DNA of 24,000 bases from Microcystaceae cyanobacterium (GTDB lineage Bacteria; Cyanobacteriota; Cyanobacteriia; Cyanobacteriales; Microcystaceae): contig JBFRWB010000212.1 of assembly GCA_051439375.1 (NCBI GenBank), forward strand, positions 11,144 through 35,143, read 5' to 3'. The first letter of the stretch is position 1. The number at the start of each line of letters is the position of its first letter. The notes beneath the pieces are model-generated. The model did not search any database, was not told where the DNA came from, and saw nothing but the letters and a program-made list of their open reading frames with translations. Of the stretch, positions 1 to 21,765 are shown piece after piece. A program made the position numbers and the translations under genes.

Positions 1-627
1 TGGCGGTGTAAAAGGATTTTCTCTCGAATAACAAGATAACTGAAACGCTTTTAGTTCAGCTAATTCTTTAACCTCAGCATCCAAAATAGTTCTTGTGGGA
101 ATTCCTCTCCCGCCCCATACTTTACCTCTATCAAGGGTAAAAACTATCATGCCACAAACTCGCTTGGTTGTTAAATTTAACAGCGATGAACCACTCATCC
201 CCGGCCTAACATTTCCTTCCTTAAACTTAAATAATCCATCCCCATCAATGCCAATATATTCAAACGTTCCCACATCCCCTATTGCATAGTTATCAGGATA
301 ACCAAAGCTATATAATTTATGGCCAACCTCAACTGATTTATCTAGCAAAACAAACGGAAATTCTAAGCTGTTATTCTCAATTTCCAACAGCGCAACATCT
401 AGCTTCTCAATATCATCTGAACAATACTTAAGATTAATCTGAGACTCAATAGCTTGCCCTTGATAATAAATTTTAAAGACTTTATCTTTATGTTTTAAGC
501 AAACATGAGCGCAGGTTAAAATTAATCTAGGAGAGACAAAGAAACCCGAACCCAGATGTTTCTGTCCCCCTTCATAACTAATTTTAACGGTGTATTTGTT
601 TAATTTTGTTTCAGAAATAGTAAACAT
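1..627 (-). CDS. Trypsin-like (chymotrypsin-fold) serine peptidase domain forming the N-terminus of a larger protein; the 3' end lies beyond the window start
   Basis: Absent from the supplied ORF track because no stop codon falls inside the window. The minus-strand frame is open from ATG (627..625) to position 1, 209 codons: MFTISETKLNKYTVKISYEGGQKHLGSGFFVSPRLILTCAHV...KLDVALLEIEN...GNVRPGMSGSSLLN...RENPFTPP. His (codon 505..507, TCAHV), Asp (397..399, DVALLEI) and Ser (193..195, GMSGS) occur in the order, spacing and local context of trypsin-like peptidases. No signal peptide or TM segment. Confidence 0.8.
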   Translation of the reverse strand, partial: MFTISETKLNKYTVKISYEGGQKHLGSGFFVSPRLILTCAHVCLKHKDKVFKIYYQGQAIESQINLKYCSDDIEKLDVALLEIENNSLEFPFVLLDKSVEVGHKLYSFGYPDNYAIGDVGTFEYIGIDGDGLFKFKEGNVRPGMSGSSLLNLTTKRVCGMIVFTLDRGKVWGGRGIPTRTILDAEVKELAELKAFQLSCYSRENPFTPP

Positions 628-658
628 AATGAGTCGTTAAACGTTTATTTCATGACAC

Positions 659-709
659 GCCATGAACTCAAGTTCATAGCGAATAGCAAAAGTCATCTTT
701 TAGATGACT
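659..709 (-). promoter_or_regulatory. Two short hairpins in the spacer between the small-protein gene and the peptidase gene (possible attenuator, processing site or weak terminator)
   Basis: ATGAACT (662..668) pairs with AGTTCAT (671..677). A perfect 8-bp stem AGTCATCT (691..698) / AGATGACT (702..709) has a 3-nt loop. Read on the minus strand, the second hairpin is followed by TTTG. The stems are AT-rich, so predicted stability is low. Confidence 0.25.
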
Positions 710-757
710 AAATTTAAAGTGCTATTTCTAGTTCCCAGCTAGTTAGTTAAACAATTA

Positions 758-792
758 ACTTCCGACTTCCGACTTCATACCTCCGACTTCTC
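758..792. repeat. Tandem heptamer array (ACTTCCG consensus, 5 units), STRR-like
   Basis: ACTTCCG 758..764, ACTTCCG 765..771, ACTTCAT 772..778, ACCTCCG 779..785, ACTTCTC 786..792. The array abuts and overlaps the stop codon (791..793) of the 102-aa gene. Confidence 0.75.
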
Positions 793-1099
793 AATCTCCT
801 CCCCATTCCAGCGTAACTTTTAATGTTCCTTCTCCTTTTCCTTTCACCAATAAAGTAGTTAACTGTCCCGATTCTACCCCAACTTTAAGACTAAATTCCA
901 CACTAGCCTTTTTCGGTTTAACATTATTAAAGGCATGGGTAATAGAATGAGCGATCGCTTCAATCGCATCTGTGACTCCTTCAAAGTCTAAAATGTCACC
1001 CACCCCTACTCTTTCTGCACCCCCAAGGGAAACCGCTTCAGCTTTAATGGTTACTTTATCAGAAACCTTTAAATCAATAATTTCTGTTGATTCATCCAT
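791..1099 (-). CDS. Small acidic protein resembling trypsin-co-occurring (Trypco-type) domain proteins; hypothetical
   Basis: 102-aa ORF directly upstream of, and co-directional with, the trypsin-like peptidase gene. The C-terminal pattern ASVEFSLKVGVESG...GEGTLKVTLEW matches my recollection of small proteins found next to trypsin-like peptidases in conflict-system neighbourhoods. No TM segment or signal peptide. The family assignment is from memory, not from a search. Confidence 0.55.
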   Translation of the reverse strand: MDESTEIIDLKVSDKVTIKAEAVSLGGAERVGVGDILDFEGVTDAIEAIAHSITHAFNNVKPKKASVEFSLKVGVESGQLTTLLVKGKGEGTLKVTLEWGGD

Positions 1100-1234
1100 G
1101 TCTAATCCCTCTAATAAATTTACTAATCAACCTTCTTTATTATCTCTTAAAATCTCTGTCGTGAGCAAACCTTATTTCATTATGGTATCGGTGCGTTACG
1201 CCTTACTAACACCCCCTACTGTTCCTTCATCATT

Positions 1235-1240
1235 TATAAT
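1235..1240 (+). promoter_or_regulatory. Candidate -10 box (TATAAT) for lgt
   Basis: Perfect TATAAT 34 nt upstream of the lgt ATG, in the divergent spacer 1100..1273. No convincing -35 element identified. Confidence 0.2.
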
Positions 1241-1273
1241 TAAGACCGATAGCCATCGCTCAAAGGATTTTCT

Positions 1274-3775: not shown

Positions 3776-6433
3776 ATGACCTCAAATTGGCGAGAACGCT
3801 TAAATATTTCACGATTTGCTATTAAATATGCACGTTTAACAATATGCTTTTGGATAGGGGTTGTGGTTGCAGGAATCTTTGCTTTTAGTTCCTTACAATA
3901 CGCCCTTTTCCCAGACGTTACTTTTCCTGTCGTAGTTGTTAACACCCCAGAAACTAATTTAAGCCTACTGGAAACAGAAAAACAAATTACTCAACCCTTA
4001 GAAAATGCCTTAATGGTTTTAGATGACACCGCAGATTTATATTCATCTACTTACCAAGGGCAGTCTGTTATTAATATAACATTTATCGGTGGAATTAACC
4101 TCTCAGATGCAACTGAAGCGGTACAAAATATTGTTAATGAAGTTAAGCTTCCTAATAATTTAACACCAAAAGTTATCCCTTTTAATATTAGTGAATCCCC
4201 TGCTGTCAGTTATGCTCTAACCAGTGAAGAAAAAAGCCTAGGGGAATTAGCCATACTGGCTCAAAATAACATCTTACCCCAAATCGAAAAAGTATCAGGA
4301 GTTCTGCGAGTTGATTTATTAGGAGATGCAACGTATCGGGATTATGATACTCAAACCCCTAACCAAAATCCCCCAACATTGGTACGTTTTAACGGAGAAG
4401 ATGTCATCGCTTTTCAGGTAATTAAACAAGCCAATGCAAACACCTTAGAAATTGTCCGCAAAGTTGAACAAATCAGTCAAGATTTACAAGTCCAATTTCC
4501 TGAAATTAACTTTACTTTAGCAGAAAGCCAAGCCGATTATATTCGTCAAGCCACTCGATCTACGATAGACGCATTAATTGGGGCAATTATATTAGCAATT
4601 TTAGTAATCTATCCCTTTCTGCGTAACTTTGCTGCTACCGTTATCACCGCTTTAGCGATTCCTATCTCTTTGTTAGGAACTGTTATTGTTATGGCTTGGT
4701 CAGGATTTAACCTTGAAACCTTGACTTTATTGGCGTTAGCCTTAGTAATTGGGATTATAGTTGATGATGCCATTGTAGATGTAGAAAATATCGCAAGACA
4801 CCTTGATAAAGGTGAAAATCCTCGACAAGCAGCCATTAAAGGAACGGATGAAATCGGCTTAACGGTTGCTGCTTCTACCTTAACCATTGTCGCCGTTTTT
4901 CTGCCAATTGCTTTAATGGGAAGCACATTAGGTCAATTTTTTAAGCCTTTTGCTTTAACTATCTCTGCTGCTGTCATTACCTCTCTTTTAGTTGCTCGGA
5001 CGCTATCTCCTGTCTTAGCCGTTTACTGGTTAAAACCCCGTAAAACAACAACCTCCGTACCCAGAAGTTCCTCTTTTTCCTTACCCTTTACCCATACTTA
5101 TCGTAACTTATTAAACTGGTCATTAGATCATCGAGGAATTATCATTTTAATCGCCATAGGAAGTTTTATCTTAGGAATCGCTTTAATTCCTTTTATTCCC
5201 CAAGGCTTTGTCCCTAAATTAGATCGAGGTGAATTTAATATTATCTATAAAATTCCCACACCGAAACTGAATAAAAAACTAAAAAATGCTGATCTGAGTA
5301 ACTTATCTCAAGGGGAACAAAATACAGGCGGTGCATTCAATTGGGTAGGAAGTTTAGGTCAATCTCCTGAGCGTATTATTCTTAGAAAAACTAGGCGAAC
5401 GGGGAAAAAATTAGAAGAAGTAATCTTGCAGCAACCTGATGTTAAATCTGTCTATTTGGTATCAGGATTACGGGGTGATCCCACCAGAGGAAAATTATAT
5501 GTAAAATTAAAAAGCGATCGCAGTTTAACCACTAGCCAAGTTCAAAGTGAAATTAGAAATACCTTACCTCAATTAGATGGGGTTTCTGTCAGTGTAGAAG
5601 ATATTGTCTTTGTGCAAACAGCTAATGATGCACCCGTTAAAATAGCTTTATTAGGGGATAATTTAGATTCATTAAATCAATTAGGAAAAACGTTTAAAAA
5701 GGAAGTTTCTCAATTATCAGGTATTGAAGATATAGATATAACCCAAAATGATCCTGAGCAGGAAGTTCAACATTATAATCAGAAAAGGGCGGTTTTTTTA
5801 AGGGCAAATTTAGATGAAAATACTGCATTAGGAGAAGCGACTCAAAAGATTGTTAACTTAGCACCTTCAATTTTACCTAATAATATTAACCTTAAAGTAT
5901 TAGGAGATTCTAATCGTTCACAACTAATTTTAAAGGAATTTGGTGTTACTTTAACCCTTTCGATTATTTGTATGTTAGTTGTTTTATATATTCCGTTTAA
6001 ACGCTTTTTAGAGCCAATGGTGGTAGGCTTATCTTTGCCGCTTTCGTTGATAGGTGCAATGTTAGCCTTACTCCTTACTCAAAGTGAATTTGGGATGATT
6101 TCGCTAATTGGTTTAATCTTTTTGTTAGGCTTACTCGATAAAAATGCCATTCTTTTAATGGACTATATTAACCAACTTCGTCAACAAGGAATGAGTCGTC
6201 GAGAGGCAATTTTAGAAACAGGAACAGTCAGATTACGTCCTATTTTAATGACCACTTTTTCTACTATTTTAGGAATGATGCCGATTGCGTTAGGCTTAGG
6301 TGCAGGTGCGGAATTACGACAACCCATGGCAGTTGCAATCATTGGGGGGTTAATTGCTTCTTCTTTATTAAGTTTAATTGTTGTTCCTGTTTTATATACT
6401 TTATTAGAGGATAGTTATAAAAAATGGTTTTAA
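3776..6433 (+). CDS. RND-superfamily efflux permease (AcrB-like, HAE-type proton relay), unusually short and lacking docking subdomains
   Basis: 885 aa with 12-TM topology and two periplasmic loops. The TM4 motif GIIVDDAIVDVENI matches the AcrB DD relay. Porter-domain segments align by eye to AcrB (RFNGEDVIAFQVIKQANANTLEIV... versus AcrB [22 protein letters not shown]...). The loops are about 225 and 250 aa, versus about 310 each in AcrB. Confidence 0.9.
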   Translation: MTSNWRERLNISRFAIKYARLTICFWIGVVVAGIFAFSSLQYALFPDVTFPVVVVNTPETNLSLLETEKQITQPLENALMVLDDTADLYSSTYQGQSVINITFIGGINLSDATEAVQNIVNEVKLPNNLTPKVIPFNISESPAVSYALTSEEKSLGELAILAQNNILPQIEKVSGVLRVDLLGDATYRDYDTQTPNQNPPTLVRFNGEDVIAFQVIKQANANTLEIVRKVEQISQDLQVQFPEINFTLAESQADYIRQATRSTIDALIGAIILAILVIYPFLRNFAATVITALAIPISLLGTVIVMAWSGFNLETLTLLALALVIGIIVDDAIVDVENIARHLDKGENPRQAAIKGTDEIGLTVAASTLTIVAVFLPIALMGSTLGQFFKPFALTISAAVITSLLVARTLSPVLAVYWLKPRKTTTSVPRSSSFSLPFTHTYRNLLNWSLDHRGIIILIAIGSFILGIALIPFIPQGFVPKLDRGEFNIIYKIPTPKLNKKLKNADLSNLSQGEQNTGGAFNWVGSLGQSPERIILRKTRRTGKKLEEVILQQPDVKSVYLVSGLRGDPTRGKLYVKLKSDRSLTTSQVQSEIRNTLPQLDGVSVSVEDIVFVQTANDAPVKIALLGDNLDSLNQLGKTFKKEVSQLSGIEDIDITQNDPEQEVQHYNQKRAVFLRANLDENTALGEATQKIVNLAPSILPNNINLKVLGDSNRSQLILKEFGVTLTLSIICMLVVLYIPFKRFLEPMVVGLSLPLSLIGAMLALLLTQSEFGMISLIGLIFLLGLLDKNAILLMDYINQLRQQGMSRREAILETGTVRLRPILMTTFSTILGMMPIALGLGAGAELRQPMAVAIIGGLIASSLLSLIVVPVLYTLLEDSYKKWF

Positions 6434-7158
6434 TTAAAAATGAAATGCTAGCATTATTGTTGTTAATTGGTACAGTCTTAAGTACCGTCGCCAGTTTCAT
6501 TTTGGGCAACCCTTGGTTAACACTTATTTTAGGCGCAGGGGTAATTTATCCTGTCTTTTTGCAACAAGTTAACCACAAAACATATAGACAAGCTTTGTTG
6601 TGGGTATTATTGTGGGCATTTTTTCAGAGTATTGCGGTTATTGTTGCAAGTTTAAAAGCACCTGAACAAGCTGCAATCGTGATCTTTAACGGTAAAAGTT
6701 ACACAGAAGAGATGTTTCATTGGATTCAGACAGGAGAAGGGGCAGAAGGAGCATTACGCCTCTTTTTACCGATTCATTTACAATATTACGGGACATTTTC
6801 TTTATTGTCATTCTTCACACTAGGAGGGGCATCTTTACTATTGGGAACATATTTGCTAAATTATATGAATTATTATGTTGCTCAATTAATTTTCCTCAGT
6901 GCTAAACCGTGGTTAGCAGCTTTAATAGGTTGGCCAATCTGGTCAATTTTAAGGGTAATTGGTTTTATTTGTACGGGGATTGCTTTAACTGCACTAGGAT
7001 TAACTATCCTTCATAAACTTCACCAACAACAAGAGAAGTGGGAGTTTCCTCGCCATTTTCTTATAATAGGAATTGGCTTTGTGATCGCTGATATTATTGT
7101 AAAAGCTTTAATCGCTCCTTTATGGCAAAAAATGTTATTTCATGCTTTAATAGGATAA
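6424..7158 (+). CDS. Polytopic membrane protein of unknown function (about 6 TM)
   Basis: 244-aa hydrophobic ORF whose ATG overlaps the RND stop codon by 10 nt (alternative start at 6445). It is followed 21 nt later by corA. No family recognised. Confidence 0.6.
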   Translation: MVLIKNEMLALLLLIGTVLSTVASFILGNPWLTLILGAGVIYPVFLQQVNHKTYRQALLWVLLWAFFQSIAVIVASLKAPEQAAIVIFNGKSYTEEMFHWIQTGEGAEGALRLFLPIHLQYYGTFSLLSFFTLGGASLLLGTYLLNYMNYYVAQLIFLSAKPWLAALIGWPIWSILRVIGFICTGIALTALGLTILHKLHQQQEKWEFPRHFLIIGIGFVIADIIVKALIAPLWQKMLFHALIG

Positions 7159-7179: not shown

Positions 7180-8337
7180 ATGATTCAACATTCTTCTACC
7201 GAATATTCTGCCTTTGATCCTACCCTTCGTCAAGATAATGAAGAAGAAGACTATTTTGAATATTACTATGATGAACCGGGAAGCGAACCGGGGACTTTAA
7301 ATATTGAACCAGATGCTTTACCCTCTCAAATTGTTTTAATTGATTATGAACCGAATAACGCGATTTGTAAAAAGAAAGTAACCCCCAATGCTTTAATTCC
7401 TTATTTGGGAACAAATACAGTTTCTTGGATGGATATTCAAGGCTTAGGAAGTGAAACCGTTTTAAAGCAAGTTGGGGACATTTTTAAACTTCATCCGTTA
7501 CTCTTAGAAGATGTGGTCAATGCACCCCAACGCCCTAAAGTAGAAGACTATAATCAACAGTTAGTTATTATCGCACAAATGGTCAGTGCTAACCCAGATG
7601 AAATGGGGTTTGAAAGTGAGCAAGTAGGATTTGTTTTAGGGGAGAATTATTTATTAACCTTTCAAGAAGATGAAGAGGATTGTTTTAATACCGTTAGAAA
7701 TCGTATCAAAGAAAATCAAGGAAGAGTTCGGCAAAAAGGAGCGGATTATTTACTTTATTTACTTTTAGATGCACTGATTGATTATTACTTTCCTGTTTTA
7801 GAAGATTATGGCGATCGCATTGAAAATTTAGAAGATAAATTAGTCAGTCATCCCCATCATAATCATTTACAAGAAATCTATGATGTCAGACGGGAATTAT
7901 TATCCCTAAGACGGGCAATTTGGCCGTTAAGAAACGTGACTGATTTATTGATTCGTGGTCATTATCCTATTATCACCGATGAAGTTCGTTTTTATTTTCG
8001 AGATTGTTATGATCACGTGATTCAACTATTAGATATTGTAGAAACCTATCGAGAATTAGCCGCTAGTTTAATGGATGTTTACTTATCTTCGATGAGTAAT
8101 CGGATGAATGAAGTGATGCAGTTTTTAACCGTCATTTCGACTATTTTTATTCCCTTAACGTTTATCGCAGGGGTGTATGGTATGAACTTTGATAATATGC
8201 CAGAGTTACAGTGGACATGGGGCTATTATTTGTGTCTGGCAATCATGGGAATTGTGGCAGGCTGTTTATTATATTTCTTTTGGAAACAAGGATGGCTTCA
8301 ACATTTTTATCCCTTAGATCATAAAAGAAAAACATAA
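7180..8337 (+). CDS. corA: CorA-family divalent-cation (Mg2+/Co2+) transporter
   Basis: 385 aa with a cytoplasmic N-terminal domain, two C-terminal TM helices and the signature YGMNF (in AGVYGMNFDNMPEL). Confidence 0.9.
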   Translation: MIQHSSTEYSAFDPTLRQDNEEEDYFEYYYDEPGSEPGTLNIEPDALPSQIVLIDYEPNNAICKKKVTPNALIPYLGTNTVSWMDIQGLGSETVLKQVGDIFKLHPLLLEDVVNAPQRPKVEDYNQQLVIIAQMVSANPDEMGFESEQVGFVLGENYLLTFQEDEEDCFNTVRNRIKENQGRVRQKGADYLLYLLLDALIDYYFPVLEDYGDRIENLEDKLVSHPHHNHLQEIYDVRRELLSLRRAIWPLRNVTDLLIRGHYPIITDEVRFYFRDCYDHVIQLLDIVETYRELAASLMDVYLSSMSNRMNEVMQFLTVISTIFIPLTFIAGVYGMNFDNMPELQWTWGYYLCLAIMGIVAGCLLYFFWKQGWLQHFYPLDHKRKT

Positions 8338-8428
8338 CCCAATTTTGTTTTTAAAATCTCTTAATCATTTCCCTCTTTATCTTCCCTTACAATGAATAGT
8401 AAAAGGCTAGGCATCTGGGACAGACATT

Positions 8429-10066
8429 ATGAGCGATCGCATTTTTCTCTACGATACAACCCTCAGAGATGGGGCGCAACGGGAAGGAATTTCCCTCTCT
8501 CTGGCGGATAAGCTGAAAATTGCTCGTAAGTTAGATAAAATGGGAATTCCCTTTATTGAAGGGGGATGGCCGGGTGCAAATCCCAAAGATGTGACCTTTT
8601 TTTGGAAAATACGGGAAGAAACCCTAACACAAGCAGAAGTAGTGGCCTTTTGTTCAACCCGTCGGCCAAAGGTGAAAGTGGCAGAAGATCGGATGCTGCA
8701 AGGGATTTTAAACGCAGAAACTCGATGGGTGACTATTTTTGGAAAATCTTGGGATTTGCACGTCACAGAAGGGCTAAAAACCACCTTAGATGAGAATTTA
8801 GCCATGATTGGAGATACCATTGACTATCTTCGCAGTCAAAACCGTCGGGTGATTTACGATGCGGAACATTGGTTCGATGGTTATGCAGCTAACCCTGATT
8901 ATGCCCTAAAAACCCTCAAAACAGCCTTAGATGCTGGGGCTGAATGGTTGGTTTTTTGTGATACCAATGGAGGAAAACTGCCCCACGAAATTAGTCATAT
9001 TGTTCTCGAAGTGATTGAAGGCTTAAACTTAGACTTATCTAAGCCTAATTCCCCTCAATTGGGCATTCACACCCATAATGATGCTGGAACAGCTGTTGCA
9101 AATGCTTTAGCTGCTGTCAACGCTGGTGTTCGCATGGTACAAGGAACAATTAATGGTTATGGAGAACGATGTGGAAATGCTAATCTCTGTACCCTCATTC
9201 CTAATTTACAGTTAAAGATGGGATACGACTGTCTTGAGCCTCAGAAATTAGCTGAATTGACGACCAGTAGCCGATTAATTAGCGAAATCGTCAATTTAGC
9301 CCCAGATGATCACGCTCCCTATGTAGGACGCTCTGCTTTTGCTCATAAAGGCGGAATTCATGTCTCTGCTGTACAGCGCAATCCTTTGACTTACGAACAT
9401 ATTAAACCTGAAGATATTGGTAATGTGCGTCGTATTGTAATTTCTGAACAAGCAGGGTTAAGTAATGTTCTCTCCAAAGCCAAGTTATTTGGAATTCAAC
9501 TTAATAAGGAGGATGAAGCCTGTCGCCGTATTTTAGAGCGATTAAAGGAATTAGAAGGGCAAGGCTATCAATTTGAAGCAGCAGAAGCGAGTTTTGAACT
9601 CTTAATGCGTCATGCTTTAGGACAACGACCTAGTTTATTTGCTCTAAAAGGGTTTCAAGTCCATTGTGATATGTTGCAGGTAGATGAAGAAAGTAATGCT
9701 TTAGCAACTATTAAAGTTACCGTCGGTGGACAGGATTTACTAGAAGTTGCCGAAGGAAATGGACCTGTATCTGCCCTTGACCGAGCATTACGCAAGGCTT
9801 TGACCAATTTTTACCCTGAAATAGCCAATTTTCATTTAGCAGACTATAAGGTGAGAATTTTAGACGGGACTGAAGGAACATCGGCCAACACCCGCGTCTT
9901 GGTAGAATCAACTAATGGGAAGCAGCGATGGACGACGGTAGGGGTTTCGGGTAATATTCTCGATGCGTCTTATCAAGCGGTGGTAGAAGGGATTGAGTAT
10001 GGGTTAATGTTACAAGCTGATGTTTGTGAACTAGATAAAACACTGGTTGCGTCAATTAAAGAATAG
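8429..10066 (+). CDS. cimA: (R)-citramalate synthase (LeuA/CimA family, long form with C-terminal regulatory domain)
   Basis: 545 aa. The N-terminus IFLYDTTLRDGAQREGISLSLADKLKIARKLDKMGIPFIEGGWPGANPKD is the pattern I associate with the Geobacter/cyanobacterial CimA clade rather than canonical LeuA. HTHND metal site and a LeuA-dimer-like C-terminus are present. The CimA versus LeuA call is from memory. Confidence 0.75.
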   Translation: MSDRIFLYDTTLRDGAQREGISLSLADKLKIARKLDKMGIPFIEGGWPGANPKDVTFFWKIREETLTQAEVVAFCSTRRPKVKVAEDRMLQGILNAETRWVTIFGKSWDLHVTEGLKTTLDENLAMIGDTIDYLRSQNRRVIYDAEHWFDGYAANPDYALKTLKTALDAGAEWLVFCDTNGGKLPHEISHIVLEVIEGLNLDLSKPNSPQLGIHTHNDAGTAVANALAAVNAGVRMVQGTINGYGERCGNANLCTLIPNLQLKMGYDCLEPQKLAELTTSSRLISEIVNLAPDDHAPYVGRSAFAHKGGIHVSAVQRNPLTYEHIKPEDIGNVRRIVISEQAGLSNVLSKAKLFGIQLNKEDEACRRILERLKELEGQGYQFEAAEASFELLMRHALGQRPSLFALKGFQVHCDMLQVDEESNALATIKVTVGGQDLLEVAEGNGPVSALDRALRKALTNFYPEIANFHLADYKVRILDGTEGTSANTRVLVESTNGKQRWTTVGVSGNILDASYQAVVEGIEYGLMLQADVCELDKTLVASIKE

Positions 10067-12907: not shown

Positions 12908-14167
12908 TTACGGATTAACCATTGTTCCCATAAATAAAATTGTCCCTGTTTCTTGATGTCGAATAGCATAGAAAAAAGGACGATTAACAACCATTTGAAA
13001 CCCTTGATCTGGCTGCATGACTGAAGTGAGACTAATCCCAATAGAAGTAGCCGCCGCCGCTTCTGTTCCTTCTTCATTTACTTCAATAAAGGTTTTATGT
13101 TTTACTTGATCAATAACTACCGAATAAGAAGTCATTTGGGAAAAATTCGCTTTACTTGCAGAAAATCCATCTTGCATCCCTAAAGCTTGTAAATGGGTTT
13201 CTAAGTCTATCTCATATTCTGACTGAAAACGGGGTAACTTTAAGCTGCCTTCCCGACTTTGAAAATTATTAACCCATTGCTTCCAATTCTCTGGTGTTAA
13301 CTGTGCTAAAAATTCTTGTAATGTTTTATTATCTTTAGGTAAATAGACATCAAACCGCCAACCACCATCACCATAGGGTAAACTTACCCCTTGGAAATCC
13401 TCCGTTTCTTGATACAAAAAATCACCCTTTCTCATCATTAAATCACGTTTCTTAGTAGAACCATCAGTTAAGAAAAAATCCTCAGAACTGGTTAAAGTTT
13501 CATCAAATTCATATTGCCACGTCCCTTTAAAATAAACTGCATTAATCAAAAATAAAATATTCTCCTTGTCAATTGAGTCAATAATTTGATTTATTTTCCC
13601 GTCTGTTTTTTGAGAAACCCAGCGATTAATAATGCCAACGGATTGATTATTACTAAAATCTAAGTTGGTAATTTCTGCCTTAAAATACTGTCGATTATTC
13701 TTTAAAAACTGATGGCGGAAAGAAACATCTTGCTTCACCCAAAGAGAATTCGCAATGTTCATTTGCACCATGGAATCTGTCCTTTGTAGCGATCGCTGGA
13801 GCATCTTAGAGGCAAGATTAACCTCTTCTAAAGTCATGTTATCAAACCCTAACAATTGATTCATCTGAGTTTGAGTTTCACCATCCGCCCCATTATATAG
13901 AAGGGAGAGTGCGATCGCCACACTGGACGGGGAAACAAACAGATTTTCTGAGTCCGTCTCCTGAAGAATCTGAGAAAATAACTTAAAGCCAAATCTATTA
14001 TGGGCATTTGTAAGTTTTTGGAGCGATTTATTCTTATTTGGCGATCCTTGAGCCATATTTTCCACAATTGGTGATAAATTAAATCCTTTGGCTGCAACGA
14101 AAGGAAGTTGCCACAAAATGCCTAACAAAACCGTCACAGCAATCATGCGTCGTGAAAACATAATCAT
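12908..14167 (-). CDS. Secreted serpin (serine protease inhibitor), predicted inhibitory
   Basis: 419 aa with signal peptide MIMFSRRMIAVTVLLGILWQLPFVAA|KG. Serpin core motifs FSPSSVAIALSLLYNGA, INAVYFKGTW, and the C-terminal NRPFFYAIRH..TG.ILFMG. The hinge EEGTEAAAAT (from codon 13075..13073) fits the inhibitory consensus. Confidence 0.9.
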   Translation of the reverse strand: MIMFSRRMIAVTVLLGILWQLPFVAAKGFNLSPIVENMAQGSPNKNKSLQKLTNAHNRFGFKLFSQILQETDSENLFVSPSSVAIALSLLYNGADGETQTQMNQLLGFDNMTLEEVNLASKMLQRSLQRTDSMVQMNIANSLWVKQDVSFRHQFLKNNRQYFKAEITNLDFSNNQSVGIINRWVSQKTDGKINQIIDSIDKENILFLINAVYFKGTWQYEFDETLTSSEDFFLTDGSTKKRDLMMRKGDFLYQETEDFQGVSLPYGDGGWRFDVYLPKDNKTLQEFLAQLTPENWKQWVNNFQSREGSLKLPRFQSEYEIDLETHLQALGMQDGFSASKANFSQMTSYSVVIDQVKHKTFIEVNEEGTEAAAATSIGISLTSVMQPDQGFQMVVNRPFFYAIRHQETGTILFMGTMVNP

Positions 14168-15103: not shown

Positions 15104-15724
15104 ATGACTGATACCGCAACTCGCAACCCTTCTCGTCCCAAAAAGAAATCGGCTGTAATGGCACGTCCCCTTAATTTATGGCAAGATAATTCCCAAAATC
15201 AGGAAGTCCGCATCGAAATTATGCCATTAATTGACGTAATATTCTGTATCTTAACCTTTTTTATCTTAGGCGCAGTGGAATTTTCCCGTCAACAGGCGAT
15301 TCAGTTAGATTTACCCAAAGCTACAACTGGAACGCCTCAAATGAGGGAGATGTTAGTAGTCAGTCTTGATGATTTTGGCCGCATCTACGTCACCAAACCT
15401 CAAACTACCTTGAATACAGGTAGTGCAACAGACAAACCCCAACCCGAACCTGTCACTCAGCAACAGCTTTACTCTGCCTTAGAAAATTATCAAAAAATGA
15501 CCCCAGATGGCCGTATCGTTCTCCATGCGTCCCGTAACGTGAGTTACAACGAAGTCGCTCAAGTTTTAGACACTTTACGACAAGTTGGGGGAAGTCGAGT
15601 TGCCTTGGCCACTTTACCCGGAGAAGCGACCTCCACCAATAATCCATCTTCCCCGAATCGTCCGTCTTCTCCTAATTCTTCTACTTTTCCCACTCCTCAG
15701 TTAAATCTACCCAATACCCCTTAA
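15104..15724 (+). CDS. exbD: ExbD/TolR-family biopolymer transport protein with a Pro/Ser-rich C-terminal tail
   Basis: 206 aa with the typical IEIMPLIDVIFCILTFFIL TM anchor and a periplasmic domain (RIVLHASRNVSYNEVAQVLDTLRQVG). The low-complexity tail is PSSPNRPSSPNSSTFPTPQ. The start may instead be the internal Met at codon 19. Confidence 0.85.
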   Translation: MTDTATRNPSRPKKKSAVMARPLNLWQDNSQNQEVRIEIMPLIDVIFCILTFFILGAVEFSRQQAIQLDLPKATTGTPQMREMLVVSLDDFGRIYVTKPQTTLNTGSATDKPQPEPVTQQQLYSALENYQKMTPDGRIVLHASRNVSYNEVAQVLDTLRQVGGSRVALATLPGEATSTNNPSSPNRPSSPNSSTFPTPQLNLPNTP

Positions 15725-16332
15725 CTTCTCATGCGACAAGCAATGAGTTGTTCCTCTAAAATGGCGATACGGTTATAAGCGGCGGTTAATTGCGCCATCA
15801 GACGACGAATTTGGATATCTGAGGCCACACTGGGTTCATGGAGAGGATCAGGAAGTGTAGTTTGTGGTACTTTGTCTTCTAATAGAACATCTTTATGTTC
15901 CATCGCCAATCTATAATATCCCTTTTGAGAATCCAGATGAGGCTCACTCACAGTATTATGGCCATTGCTGTTGTGATGATAGCCATTACCAACTAATTCA
16001 GTCGTCTCTGGATGACTGTTTTTATAGTGATAACTGTTACCGACTAATTCAGTGCTAGTGCTATCTGAATAACGATTGTCGTTATGATAACCGTTATCTA
16101 CTGACTCGCTTTCCTCTTGAGACTCAATTGAAGCAGTCTGAGCAGTGGCTAATTTTTCTTCTCGATGCGATAACTTAGGTAGCGGTTGTAACGGCTGATC
16201 TGAGGACATTGGAGAAGATGCGATATGAGGACTCGCTAAAACCGTTAACTGTCCCGTAAGACGTTCAACAATTTGATGAAGTTGTTCTACCTTTTGATTC
16301 AATGTGTTAATTTGATGTTGCAGCCCATCCAT
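15721..16332 (-). CDS. Hypothetical protein: terminal coiled-coil segments flanking a His/Tyr/Asn-rich repeat region
   Basis: 203 aa. Heptad-like N-terminus (QHQINTLNQKVEQLHQIVERLTGQL) and C-terminus (IQIRRLMAQLTAAYNRIAILEEQLIA). Central 17-aa tandem repeat TELVGNSYHYKNSHPET / TELVGNGYHHNSNGHNT (15952..16053). No family recognised. Confidence 0.55.
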   Translation of the reverse strand: MDGLQHQINTLNQKVEQLHQIVERLTGQLTVLASPHIASSPMSSDQPLQPLPKLSHREEKLATAQTASIESQEESESVDNGYHNDNRYSDSTSTELVGNSYHYKNSHPETTELVGNGYHHNSNGHNTVSEPHLDSQKGYYRLAMEHKDVLLEDKVPQTTLPDPLHEPSVASDIQIRRLMAQLTAAYNRIAILEEQLIACRMRS

Positions 16333-18633: not shown

Positions 18634-20085
18634 ATGTCTCCCCTTAACTCGTCGTTAAACACCACCTCAAGTTTATCGACATCTCAGGTGGTTTATCAAG
18701 AGTTTTTCCAAATTGTTAAACACCCCCGTCATCATAACCTAATTGTTGAGTTAAATCAATATTTTTTAAATGATTCTAGCCAACTGCCTCGTTTATTAAA
18801 TACAGTCATTCAACAGTTAAAACAACAAAAAATTTCAACGTTGCAGGCAAGAGAAATTACTGCAACAGCTTGTTGTGTCGTGGCAGAATATGTTAACACC
18901 TATGTTTATAATCCCAAAGATGAAAAATATTTTAAACAAGTAATTAGCTTATTGAATGCCTTGATTTATGGAGCGGTTAAAATTCCTAAATCAGAAGACT
19001 TATCAGAGCCTGAACCAAGCAATAATTACATAGAAAAAGAAACATCTGAGATCAGAAAAATAGATGGAAATACCTACGGCTTGGTTGCCTTAATTGGCAT
19101 TAAAGCTCTGTTAGAAAAAGTTAACATCAATAACGATTTTTTATTGCTGATTTCTATTTTTGAATGCCTTGACTGGTCACAGGTTTCTCCTGAACAACAG
19201 ACAATAATGACTAATTTTTTGAAGAACTTAAACTTTATTGGGGTTTCTCCCGAAGAGATGGAATTTATTTCGTTGTTACAAAAATACGGCTGGCGAGAAG
19301 TTTTAAGCATAGCGGAATTTCAATACCGTAAGAATCAATATATTAACCTAAAATCTCGTTTTAATGAAGACGAAAATGCAGAAAAATCTCCCATCGAATT
19401 TCTTGAAGAACCCCTGAGTATTTTTCAACAAAAATTAAAAGATTCTCTATCTTCTCTGATGGTTCTTGAGGAAGCAACCTTAGAGTTTGGCTCAGAGCCA
19501 TCTCAGTATCTAAACTGTTTTAATCGTGCTTGTTCTGCTCAAGACAAATTAATGATTGTGTTCCATGGGTTAACTAAAATGTGTCTAGATGGAATGTATC
19601 AAAATGCTCAAGCTCGTCAACATATTGAGCAGGGGATTCAATTTAGCACGAAAGCACAAGAATTGTATAAAACAATTTGCAGTCAATGGAGTCATCAACT
19701 GAGTGAATTGACTCGGTTAACGGTTGCTGCTAAAGTCATCACGACACCCAATGGACATAAAATGAAAAAGACTGTATTAGATTGGCCACTGAGTAGCTTT
19801 TTTCCTGAACAACAAGGGAAAAGAGGTAAAATCACACAAACTGTCCTTAAAGAAAAGGTCGATATGCTTTCTCTAGAAGATTGCGCTAATTTACTCGTCT
19901 TACTTTATTGTAATATTCAAGAAACAGCTAATCCGTTAGGACAGGTTAATAATCTCTATGCGGCATTTCGTGAAAAACTGACATTAACCAACCAAGACCA
20001 TCAGTTTACCCATAATTATTTAGAAGCAAGAGGGTTTAGTCCCCATCAAATCAGTGGAGTTTTAGAATTTCAAGAAGATGTTTAA
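18634..20085 (+). CDS. Hypothetical 483-aa predominantly helical soluble protein
   Basis: Long ORF with a GAGG RBS, 65 nt downstream of and co-directional with the M48-like gene. No TM segments, signal peptide or recognisable catalytic motif. Confidence 0.6.
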   Translation: MSPLNSSLNTTSSLSTSQVVYQEFFQIVKHPRHHNLIVELNQYFLNDSSQLPRLLNTVIQQLKQQKISTLQAREITATACCVVAEYVNTYVYNPKDEKYFKQVISLLNALIYGAVKIPKSEDLSEPEPSNNYIEKETSEIRKIDGNTYGLVALIGIKALLEKVNINNDFLLLISIFECLDWSQVSPEQQTIMTNFLKNLNFIGVSPEEMEFISLLQKYGWREVLSIAEFQYRKNQYINLKSRFNEDENAEKSPIEFLEEPLSIFQQKLKDSLSSLMVLEEATLEFGSEPSQYLNCFNRACSAQDKLMIVFHGLTKMCLDGMYQNAQARQHIEQGIQFSTKAQELYKTICSQWSHQLSELTRLTVAAKVITTPNGHKMKKTVLDWPLSSFFPEQQGKRGKITQTVLKEKVDMLSLEDCANLLVLLYCNIQETANPLGQVNNLYAAFREKLTLTNQDHQFTHNYLEARGFSPHQISGVLEFQEDV

Positions 20086-20092
20086 TGCCAAC

Positions 20093-21625
20093 TTAGATAG
20101 TTGAGTTTAAATTTTTATATGAGGCAATAATTTGTTGTACGACTTCTTCAATCGTTAAGTGATCCGTTTCAATTCTAATGGCATCTTCTGCTTGACGCAG
20201 GGGAGAAATGGCTCTATTACTATCAAAATCATCCCTTTGTTGAATCTCTTGCATTAATGTGTCTAACTGCTCTTCATATCCCTGTTCAGAAAAGTCTTTT
20301 AACCGTCGTTTCGCCCGTTCTTTCACCGAAGCCGTTAAAAATATCTTTAATTCTGCATTAGGAAACACATGAGTCCCAATGTCTCTTCCTTCTGCCACTA
20401 AACCCCCTTTCTCACCATATTTTTGTTGTACGTTTACAAGAAATTGACGTACCGCAGCCTGTGCTGCCACTTGCGAGACATTTTTAGTGATTTCTGGACT
20501 ACGAATAATTTCACTAACATCTTGGCCATTAATTTTCACCCCATTCTTGTCGGGAACTAATTCAAGGGTTAACCCTTCGAGTTGATCAGCGATCGCAATT
20601 TCATCCCCCAGAGAAATTCCCTTTTCCATTATCCACCATGTAATTCCTCGATACATCGCCCCAGTATCAAGGTACAAAAGATTTAATTGTTGGGCAATTT
20701 GACGGGTAACGGTGGACTTTCCTGCACCCGCCGGTCCATCTATGGCAATAATAGGAGAATGGTCACAAAGCAACATATTATCAATTAAACGGGTTGACCC
20801 TACATAAGCAGCAATGGCCAATATTCCCTGATTTTCAAGCCTTTCTAAAGGAATCAAGGTTTTTGGATCAACCAACTCGGCATATTGTAATTTAATATCA
20901 GGAATTTGGGCGAATTCTTGACGAATAAGGTGCAGTAAAACTTTAGGGGATTTTTCCCCCTGTTCAAAGGCGTTTTTCGCAACGGATAAACTTTTATAAA
21001 GGGTAAGGGCTTTTTCTTTTTCTGTTTTGCTTAAATACTGATTACGGGAACTATAAGCGAGTCCAGAGGGTTCTCTTATGGTAGGACAGCCCTGAATTTT
21101 GACGGGAAGATTTAAGTCCGCAACCAAATGGCGAATAATCACCAACTGTTGCCGATCTTTTTCGCCAAAATAAGCGACTGTTGGCTGAATAAGGGTTAAA
21201 AGCTTAGTTACAATTGTAGCGACTCCAGCAAAATGACCGAGGCGAAATTCTCCACAAAGATGTTTGGTTAATATTTCAGGCGGCACGACAGTGGTAAGAT
21301 TTTTGAGATCACTGGTGCTGTTCCCCGAAACGCCCAATGTTTCAGGCGTAGGAGCAAAGATAGCATTCACACCTAATTCTGCACATAATTGACAATCTTG
21401 TTCAAATTGCCGAGGATATTCGTCTAAATCTTCACTGGGTGTAAATTGAAGTGGATTAACAAAGATACTAACGATGGTAAACTGATTTTCTAAAAGCGAT
21501 CGCTTGATCAGGCTCAAATGGCCCGCGTGTAAAAACCCCATTGTTGGGATTAAACCAATAGTTTGATGGGGTTTAAAAGAGCGAATTAGGGTTTTAACAC
21601 CAGATACGGTGGTTAAGATATACAT
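20093..21625 (-). CDS. panC: Bifunctional pantoate--beta-alanine ligase / cytidylate kinase (PanC-Cmk fusion)
   Basis: N-terminal PanC motifs (GLIPTMGFLHAGHLSLI, YFGEKDRQQ) and C-terminal Cmk motifs (IAIDGPAGAGKSTV, GRDIGT). I place the start at the internal ATG 21625..21623 (MYILTTVSG...) because the 19 upstream codons of the 529-aa ORF look non-native (MSRLGKITFYCYFDETLIV). Confidence 0.9.
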   Translation of the reverse strand: MYILTTVSGVKTLIRSFKPHQTIGLIPTMGFLHAGHLSLIKRSLLENQFTIVSIFVNPLQFTPSEDLDEYPRQFEQDCQLCAELGVNAIFAPTPETLGVSGNSTSDLKNLTTVVPPEILTKHLCGEFRLGHFAGVATIVTKLLTLIQPTVAYFGEKDRQQLVIIRHLVADLNLPVKIQGCPTIREPSGLAYSSRNQYLSKTEKEKALTLYKSLSVAKNAFEQGEKSPKVLLHLIRQEFAQIPDIKLQYAELVDPKTLIPLERLENQGILAIAAYVGSTRLIDNMLLCDHSPIIAIDGPAGAGKSTVTRQIAQQLNLLYLDTGAMYRGITWWIMEKGISLGDEIAIADQLEGLTLELVPDKNGVKINGQDVSEIIRSPEITKNVSQVAAQAAVRQFLVNVQQKYGEKGGLVAEGRDIGTHVFPNAELKIFLTASVKERAKRRLKDFSEQGYEEQLDTLMQEIQQRDDFDSNRAISPLRQAEDAIRIETDHLTIEEVVQQIIASYKNLNSTI

Positions 21626-21765
21626 AACAATTAAAGTTTCGTCAAAATAACAATAGAAAGTAATTTTGCCTAATCTTGACACAAACCTTAATGGTATCTT
21701 AATTCTGGAATAAGAACCTCATCTTTTTAATGATGACGCTTGACTCAATTGTGCAAAATGATTGA

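Follow-up and report, generated by a model that had tools for sequence, protein, structure and literature searches.

A Trypco1 and trypsin-like protease gene pair from a Microcystaceae cyanobacterium: probably a decayed member of a protease-effector conflict cassette

What does a trypsin-like protease that carries no signal peptide do inside a cyanobacterial cell, and what is the role of the small acidic protein encoded just upstream of it? The question is raised by the first 1273 positions of a 24-kb stretch of DNA (24,000 nucleotides, referred to here as the window, whose coordinates are used throughout unless another locus is named) from a Microcystaceae cyanobacterium, GenBank assembly GCA_051439375.1, contig JBFRWB010000212.1. 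Kaur, Burroughs, Iyer and Aravind (2020, eLife 9:e52696) gave the names Trypco1 and Trypco2 to two small domains that exclude one another and are encoded beside intracellular trypsin-like peptidases in NTP-dependent conflict systems, which are enriched in cyanobacteria and actinobacteria, and described both domains as co-occurring partners without assigning them a role. We report that the gene pair in the window is probably a decayed member of this already known and annotated kind. The more specific reading that we favour, with moderate confidence, is that positions 1-1273 contain genes 1 and 2 of a protease-effector conflict cassette of three genes, of the abortive-infection type, in which Trypco1 would be a latent pore-former, and that this copy of the cassette has been disabled.

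The protease gene is visible in the window only in part. On the minus strand a frame is open from the ATG at 627 down to position 1, a length of 209 codons, and it is missing from the list of open reading frames (ORFs) because it runs off the window edge. It encodes an entire PA-clan serine protease domain and a linker ending in ENPFTPP, the NTPase part of the protein lying beyond position 1. The frame is present where a first-pass annotation, made from the letters of the window alone, had placed it, and so is the ordered catalytic triad reported there: His41 in the context TCAHV (codon 507-505), Asp77 in DVALLEI (399-397) and Ser145 in GMSGS (195-193), all three invariant in a 10-sequence alignment of relatives that includes the protease of SsAvs4, a protein to which we return below. 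The frame matches the full 144-position Trypsin_2 model of Pfam (E 4.6e-14, 53.8 bits against a cut-off of 27.6) and, by this profile and the ordered, conserved triad, is a PA-clan (S1/Trypsin_2) serine peptidase. Its N-terminus, MFTISETKLNKYTVKISYEGGQKH, holds no hydrophobic signal-peptide core when read directly, which agrees with the earlier claim that a signal peptide is absent. Against PADLOC, the N-terminal ~110-160 residues resemble the heads of LmuA, RT-Protease_XI, Avs1b and HamA (E 3.9e-18 to 5e-9). Membership of the AVAST group (Avs1b/Avs4) was considered and rejected, since no full-length match to an Avs model was found; the Avs1b model gives 27.8 bits against a cut-off of 1500, and the match is confined to the first ~107 residues of the protease.

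The 102-aa protein encoded upstream is a bona fide member of the Trypco1 family of Pfam and the CU044_2847 family of NCBIfam, with matches well above the cut-offs of both (PF19493, E 1.2e-15, 58.3 bits against 24.6; NF041216, named CU044_2847_fam, E 1.2e-15, 57.9 bits against 23), as had been suspected of this small acidic gene from its position. All 96 of its homologs belong to PF19493. The protein has an isoelectric point (pI) of 4.85 and a net charge of -6.3, and is laid out as an acidic beta-hairpin (residues 1-31), an amphipathic helix (39-60), the motif KPKKA (61-65) and an amphipathic beta-hairpin (64-99), ending three residues past a terminal LEW. AlphaFold2 (AF2) gives the order of secondary structure, at low confidence, as beta-beta-alpha-beta-beta. 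A sequence search of the PDB with the Trypco1 protein returned only noise (streptavidin, E 0.05).

What lies beyond the window edge is supplied by a public protein, P0001, which is 344 aa long, 100% identical to the window frame and encoded on a 49,779-bp contig of the Microcystaceae cyanobacterium metagenome-assembled genome (MAG), where it is labelled 'MAG: trypsin-like peptidase domain-containing protein [Microcystaceae cyanobacterium]'. Past ENPFTPP it reads TGQINNIHKVFGRDLEIQRSFELLNSGSGVALIGASGMGKSS...RLLLLLDG, which is an FxGRxxE helix followed by Walker A and Walker B; the NTPase motifs and weak matches fall in residues 218-330, with the motifs FGRDLE, GASGMGKSS (Walker A) and LLLLLDG (Walker B) within 218-325. 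Two predictions of the first-pass annotation are thus upheld, namely that the peptidase is the N-terminal module of a bigger protein and that an NTPase starts right after the NPF motif. The partner is not a giant STAND protein with TPR or WD40 repeats: intact homologs end at 433-446 aa without a repeat sensor, giving a compact ~430-aa protease-NTPase that is accompanied by a separate ~900-aa membrane ATPase gene. Searches with profile hidden Markov models (HMMs), which matched Trypsin_2 and Trypco1, gave weak matches of the STAND/AAA type for P0001 (nSTAND1, AAA_16, AAA_22, NACHT and NB-ARC, each under its gathering score). The nSTAND1 score is 24.7 bits in P0001, against a cut-off of 27.1, and 27.5 in the intact homolog of locus L004, where it covers just 41 of the 379 profile positions.

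P0001 stops ~20 residues past Walker B, whereas intact homologs continue to 433, 434 or 446 aa and have a common conserved C-terminus. After the shared ..DMVWEG, it ends in 13 residues, KGLLIQYGINYEV, in place of the FTNPVRNQLRSLA... of intact relatives, and the +1 frame of the L002 DNA at the same point gives KALLIRLGINSGV (also given as GKALLIRLGINSGV) with a stop at the identical place. Since the tail of P0001 matches the +1 frame of its relatives, the protease-NTPase gene of the source appears to carry a frameshift near codon 331, some 20 aa past Walker B. A reconstruction in which 5 nt, GGGAA, are duplicated would give exactly the reading of P0001. An exact 59-mer had no match in genome contigs, contig look-ups by exact protein gave no record for P0001 or P0114 (a second protein of the source, described below), and a search with P0001 of metagenome contigs and genome contigs gave no confirmed relatives.

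The organisation of the complete cassette is seen in related loci. A scan of metagenome sequence with the Trypco1 alignment gave 80 loci, and their six-frame ORFs were searched with HMMs from relatives. In 67 of the 72 loci with at least 300 bp downstream of Trypco1, the next gene is a homologous protease in the same orientation, usually at a distance of 12-58 nt, so that the linkage between Trypco and peptidase genes, put forward earlier as a conserved one, is found to be so. The complete protease ORFs (n=48) fall mainly into size groups of ~375 aa, of 422-446 aa with an NTPase tail, and of >750 aa with fusion to large C-terminal regions; the window pair belongs to the second of these. Twenty of the complete ORFs are NTPase-tailed and in 19 of them a third gene, gene 3, comes next. 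The order Trypco1, protease-NTPase (433, 434 or 446 aa) and ATPase (853-954 aa) is found in the cyanobacterial loci L002, L004 and L006 and also in L010, which is from a MAG of Candidatus Competibacteraceae (Gammaproteobacteria) and has a 4-nt gene overlap. As the gene order is identical in cyanobacteria and Competibacteraceae, the cassette is a conserved unit that crosses phyla.

In close relatives gene 3 encodes ~780-1050 aa and often overlaps or abuts the protease-NTPase gene. Its protein consists, in order, of a conserved head (VPKLDLAPKL..PLDYLLLLYWVFFFPQALRWY), a hydrophobic (G-V-x-x)n region, a helical middle, an ATPase and a C-terminal region, which is labelled helix-turn-helix in some annotations and which we take, in our favoured reading, as a winged-helix region. 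The ATPase has the motifs GHRRMGKTS and IIALDEFE, matches AAA_35, ATPase_2, AAA_16 and AAA_22 and shows a weak similarity to Orc1/Cdc6-like proteins.

The repeat region of gene 3 has some unusual properties of its own. At 8052-8533 of L004 a 12-nt tandem repeat in 40 copies encodes (G-V-x-x)n as a continuous, GxxxG glycine-zipper-like hydrophobic array, and the region between the head and the C-terminal part ranges from 92 to 363 aa between loci that are otherwise near-identical (noted for L004, L032 and L039). In gene 3 of L010 (9665-12427) the annotated frame reads SAWRSAWR... for ~32 codons and another frame holds the canonical GVAFGVAV...; as more than one frame of the array is open, indels can alter the protein and still leave it untruncated. 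Nothing relevant came from a literature search for glycine-zipper STAND sensors.

Is the cassette complete in the genome from which the window is taken? Gene 3 of the source contig is P0114 (MGK7933449.1, 649 aa), whose contig likewise measures 49,779 bp and which aligns from residue 311 of the L004 gene-3 protein, so that the head and repeat region (the first ~310 residues) are missing. The accessions run in the order lgt (MGK7933454), Trypco1 (..453), protease (..452), two coding sequences (CDS; ..451 and ..450) and P0114 (..449), from which it follows that the three-gene cassette is annotated as at least five CDS in the source. This is consistent with breakage, although the two intervening CDS could also be an insertion. 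Lesions are found in close relatives: in L001 (6891-7892) a deletion fuses the protease-NTPase gene to the middle of gene 3, in L002 (6086-7272) and also in L003 the protease is broken at the catalytic serine, in L009 (Crocosphaera, 5532-6842) the protease-NTPase gene is in three pieces, in L006 gene 3 is split at the repeat, and in L008 (Gloeothece verrucosa, 8335-8436) an orphan Trypco1 stands with a 34-aa protease remnant. Real decay is the norm in this clade, and independent inactivating lesions are common in close relatives.

A less likely alternative is that the cassette is intact in the organism and that the frameshift and the short gene 3 are artefacts of MAG assembly or annotation, arising for example from indels near the 12-nt array. 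Such an explanation draws on the origin of the sequence in a MAG, on the nature of the gene-3 array (12 nt x 40 in L004), which is a type of sequence that assemblers collapse or shift, on the L010 array, where reading passes into a second frame and then returns, and on the undamaged state of Trypco1 and of the entire protease domain. However, the shift in the protease-NTPase gene lies in unique, non-repetitive coding sequence just past Walker B, the lesions of L001, L002, L009 and L008 arose independently, and pervasive frameshifts are not apparent in the 24-kb window, whose 19 ORFs of at least 120 aa include full-length LeuA, Hom, PanC-Cmk, CorA and others. An apparent second frameshift, in AcrB (ORFs 3776-6433 and 6424-7158), was considered and rejected, as the 885-aa ORF has N- and C-termini that are normal for its family and the 244-aa ORF has no ACR_tran match. 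The lesions in relatives, together with the lack of pervasive frameshifts in the window, favour a real inactivation in the source over an assembly error, and the cassette of this genome looks, from its sequence, to be disabled.

How might an undamaged cassette act? Evans et al. (bioRxiv 10.1101/2025.11.14.688446, Nov 2025), who group Trypco1 and Trypco2 together as 'Pepco', report that SsPepco of Streptomyces subrutilus is a pre-assembled, 9-10-mer beta-barrel resistant to sodium dodecyl sulfate, that the adjoining trypsin-like SsAvs4 cuts it after Ile97 with removal of a 2-kDa C-terminal tail, that a construct ending at Ile97 is lethal to E. coli, and that toxicity requires the catalytic serine of the protease and the amphipathic N-terminal helix of SsPepco. 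The earlier statement that modules of this kind have never been tested experimentally is therefore outdated for Trypco2, the family to which SsPepco belongs both by Pfam and in the supplement of that study. In design the window protein resembles SsPepco closely: the mean hydrophobic moment of the helix at 100 degrees is 1.81 in Trypco1 (residues 39-60) and 1.35 in SsPepco, the moments of the two strictly alternating strands at 180 degrees are 2.70 and 2.26 against 2.81 and 2.22, and the pI values are 4.85 and 4.84.

We propose that the membrane ATPase and the NTPase module would form a switch that senses a trigger; upon activation, by analogy, the protease domain would become competent and cut Trypco1. 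The latter, with its amphipathic helix and amphipathic beta-hairpin, would be a latent pore-former like Trypco2/SsPepco, and in its processed form may permeabilise the cytoplasmic membrane, so that the cell is killed or arrested. The experimental precedent covers only the logic that leads from protease to small protein; the other steps we infer.

Several observations weigh against this reading. The protein studied experimentally is a Trypco2 and not a Trypco1, so that direct precedent exists only for the sister family. The Trypco1 alignment has an hhalign probability of 0.16% against SsPepco, leaving homology undetected, and SsPepco matches only Trypco2 in Pfam where the window protein matches only Trypco1; homology between the two families was accordingly rejected as a basis for transferring the mechanism, and only the shared design is used. 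The AF2 monomer of Trypco1 is poor (predicted local distance difference test, pLDDT, 56; predicted template modelling score, pTM, 0.41; 41 sequences), and although the structure of the 102-aa protein alone, which the first-pass annotation had put forward for prediction, was obtained, it is too poor for fold searching. In 93 distinct Trypco1 sequences 0-16 residues (median 2) follow the terminal xEW, and four sequences end at the Trp; the cleavable C-terminal tail that defines Trypco2 is thus lacking. The two ATPase modules of the cassette show no significant BLASTP similarity, which removes the idea that they are recent paralogs, and the roles of both are assigned by inference. The cassette is not catalogued as a system in PADLOC 2.0 or NCBIfam, which give only partial matches to the protease head or the P-loop. 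The frameshift is deduced from protein sequences alone and the source is a MAG, in which an assembly error is possible. Finally, on the visible side of the locus there are housekeeping genes and no defence island.

As Trypco1 has no C-terminal tail, an activating cut cannot be a tail removal of the Trypco2 kind. The most conserved candidate positions are Val31, after the LGGEE loop (V in 82 and I in 8 of the 93 sequences), KPKKA at 61-65, and Ile/Val95, which is conserved and lies inside the last strand. More speculatively, the cut might fall behind the near-invariant Val31, with loss of the acidic hairpin at the N-terminus, or at the KPKKA junction. From here it is a short step to an alternative that we consider unlikely, in which Trypco1 is a distinct, possibly permuted mini pore-former gated at its N-terminus and the membrane ATPase with its variable (GVxx)n region is a sensor or a second effector. 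The LGGEExV loop at Val31 resembles the LGGQPARI/R site of SsPepco (the slash marking the cut), a motif too short to exclude chance. If this were true, the gene-3 ATPase would serve either as a membrane sensor that varies rapidly or as a second effector at the membrane.

It is less probable still that the roles are reversed, with the protease as the death effector, acting on host or phage proteins, and Trypco1 as an inhibitor, an antitoxin-like cap or an adaptor that forms no pore. The missing homology to Trypco2 and the missing cleavable tail would suit such an arrangement, as would the treatment of Trypco domains by Kaur et al. (2020) merely as co-occurring partners and the report by Evans et al. 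(bioRxiv 10.1101/2025.11.14.688446) that effector-less caspase-like proteases defend alone. The orphan Trypco1 of L008, which persists after loss of the protease, is tolerable for a latent toxin or a harmless regulator alike. Yet the conserved amphipathic helix and the alternating strands, one face of which is hydrophobic and the other charged, are a signature of a membrane beta-barrel and mirror SsPepco; Trypco1 and Trypco2 hold the same, mutually exclusive place beside the same clade of proteases; the window protease aligns with SsAvs4, the triad being conserved; and the experimental authors themselves place Trypco1 with Trypco2. Least of all can the pair be an ordinary housekeeping quality-control protease of the HtrA/DegP type beside an unrelated small gene, a reading that draws on weak NCBIfam similarities to MarP, DegS and HhoA-type proteases but is effectively refuted by domain architecture and Trypco1 linkage, the scores being far under the family cut-offs (26 against 250 bits, 20 against 423 bits), signal peptide, transmembrane (TM) anchor and PDZ domain all being absent, the protease being fused to a P-loop NTPase, and its linkage to Trypco1 being near-obligate.

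Returning to the cassette in the window, the coordinates of its visible parts are collected in Table 1. The 163-nt spacer between the two genes had been described as structured, and its folding bears this out: the minimum free energy is -41.2 kcal/mol (z = -2.4), equalled by 2 of 200 shuffles. A terminator-like hairpin at 709-691 is followed by a T-rich tail, a second hairpin lies at 681-658, and short direct repeats of the GAAGTCGGA type occupy 790-758. The structure is, however, not conserved. The spacer has no Rfam match, does not align to the spacers of relatives, and has no copies elsewhere in the window or in 90 loci; a conserved regulatory RNA was rejected on these grounds. Within the family the distance from Trypco1 to the protease has two modes, 12-58 nt (60 loci) and 159-305 nt (8 loci), and the long spacers carry unrelated, hairpin-rich inserts. 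The spacer of the window is probably such a variable insert, or else an attenuator, in which case the terminator-like hairpin might attenuate read-through and leave the oligomeric effector, Trypco1, in excess over the protease. The near-identical loci L033, L034 and L038 provide a related observation: they carry mosaic, hairpin-rich spacer inserts of 175-237 nt, with common ends and differing middles, where the spacer of their siblings is 18 nt, a pattern that points to small mobile or recombining elements with this intergenic site as their target. The promoter of the cassette presumably lies in the divergent intergenic region; a promoter scan there gave 9-of-12 consensus matches at best, none of them well placed.

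Table 1. Features at the edge of the window that belong to, or adjoin, the Trypco1-protease pair.
Feature	Position	Strand	Accession or basis
Trypsin-like peptidase / P-loop NTPase gene, first 209 codons	1..627	-	MGK7933452.1, annotated 344 aa
Intergenic spacer Trypco1-protease, 163 nt	628..790	-	fold, repeats, hairpins
Trypco1 gene, 102 aa	791..1099	-	MGK7933453.1; Pfam PF19493, NCBIfam NF041216
Divergent intergenic region, Trypco1 start (1099, -) to lgt start (1274, +)	1100..1273	.	ORF map

Nearness to a defence island, which had been raised as a possibility, is not seen, the visible flank being housekeeping. It begins with lgt (divergent, 1274-2107; Pfam LGT, E 2e-83) and includes genes for an M16 peptidase, an AcrB-type transporter, CorA, LeuA and homoserine dehydrogenase and, further, for an M23 peptidase, a serpin, ExbB/ExbD, an M48 peptidase, PanC-Cmk, a response regulator and a phytochrome kinase. 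In every related locus the flanks are different, and some contain NACHT genes (L006) or toxin-antitoxin pairs (L004 and L010); the cassette thus behaves as a mobile accessory unit. Its GC content, 36.8% for the module, is similar to the 39.0% of the window, so that there is no compositional sign of recent acquisition. In L001 a MoxR-type AAA+ gene (bpMoxR/AAA_3) and a DHC gene (4704-6212) lie just upstream of Trypco1, the MoxR-like gene at a distance of two genes, and are absent from the other loci; this arrangement is reminiscent of the systems built around MoxR from which Trypco1 was originally reported.

Some other features of the window may be recorded here. There are 15 copies of the cyanobacterial HIP1 palindrome, GCGATCGC, in the 24 kb, one of them inside the Trypco1 gene (951-958). 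A full-length bacterial serpin gene (12908-14167, minus strand; Pfam Serpin, E 6.9e-117) adjoins a gene for an M23/LysM peptidase; 12 kb separate the serpin gene from the protease module, to which no link was found. PanC-Cmk (20093-21682, minus strand) is a fusion of pantoate-beta-alanine ligase and cytidylate kinase in one 529-aa ORF. ORFs without a Pfam match at E <= 1e-5 are those at 6424-7158 (plus strand, 244 aa), 15721-16332 (minus strand, 203 aa) and 18634-20085 (plus strand, 483 aa).

Protease-licensed pore formation, the logic of gasdermins and perforins, appears to be among the most widespread effector strategies of bacterial immunity, and the experimental tests in the literature that we examined concern the Trypco2 branch only. 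Together with its intact relatives, the locus defines a compact Trypco1 subtype that crosses phyla and is made up of an effector of 100 aa, a protease-switch of 430 aa and a membrane ATPase. As its effector has no equivalent of the gating tail of Trypco2, the subtype is a tractable one for questions of how Trypco1 is gated and what a membrane-embedded ATPase senses. The source genome, furthermore, appears to present a defence cassette caught in the course of decay, which matches the frequent, independent inactivation in related unicellular cyanobacteria.

Among known systems, LmuA (Lamassu, protease type), RT-Protease class XI, Avs1b and HamA of PADLOC share with the window protein a protease head, but neither the remainder of these proteins nor their partner genes are present here. 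The ternary vWA-MoxR/VMAP systems are those in which Trypco1 was defined, beside intracellular trypsin-like peptidases. In contrast to them, the intact cassettes of L004 and L010 and the visible flank of the window contain no vWA, MoxR or VMAP-C, and the NTP-dependent parts of the cassette are instead a short STAND/AAA-like module on the protease and a TM (GVxx)n ATPase.

The SsPepco-SsAvs4 pair is alike in having a small acidic protein encoded directly upstream of a cytoplasmic trypsin-like serine protease with a fused P-loop NTPase; the triads of the two proteases align, and both small proteins combine one amphipathic helix with amphipathic, alternating beta-strands of comparable moments. 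The differences lie in the window Trypco1, which lacks the 20-aa C-terminal tail and an Ile97-type site and has, in the low-confidence AF2 model, an extra acidic beta-hairpin at residues 1-31; in the partner, since SsAvs4 has 1638 aa and a portal-binding sensor whereas the window-type partner has ~430 aa and a minimal NTPase; and in the separate membrane ATPase gene that ends the Trypco1 cassette. The bacterial gasdermin-protease and EACC1-caspase modules have effectors of unrelated fold, which are monomers that oligomerise after loss of an inhibitory C-terminal domain, whereas Pepco-type effectors are reported to be pre-assembled barrels. They nevertheless share with the cassette, as we read it, the principle that an adjacent protease licenses a latent membrane-pore effector.

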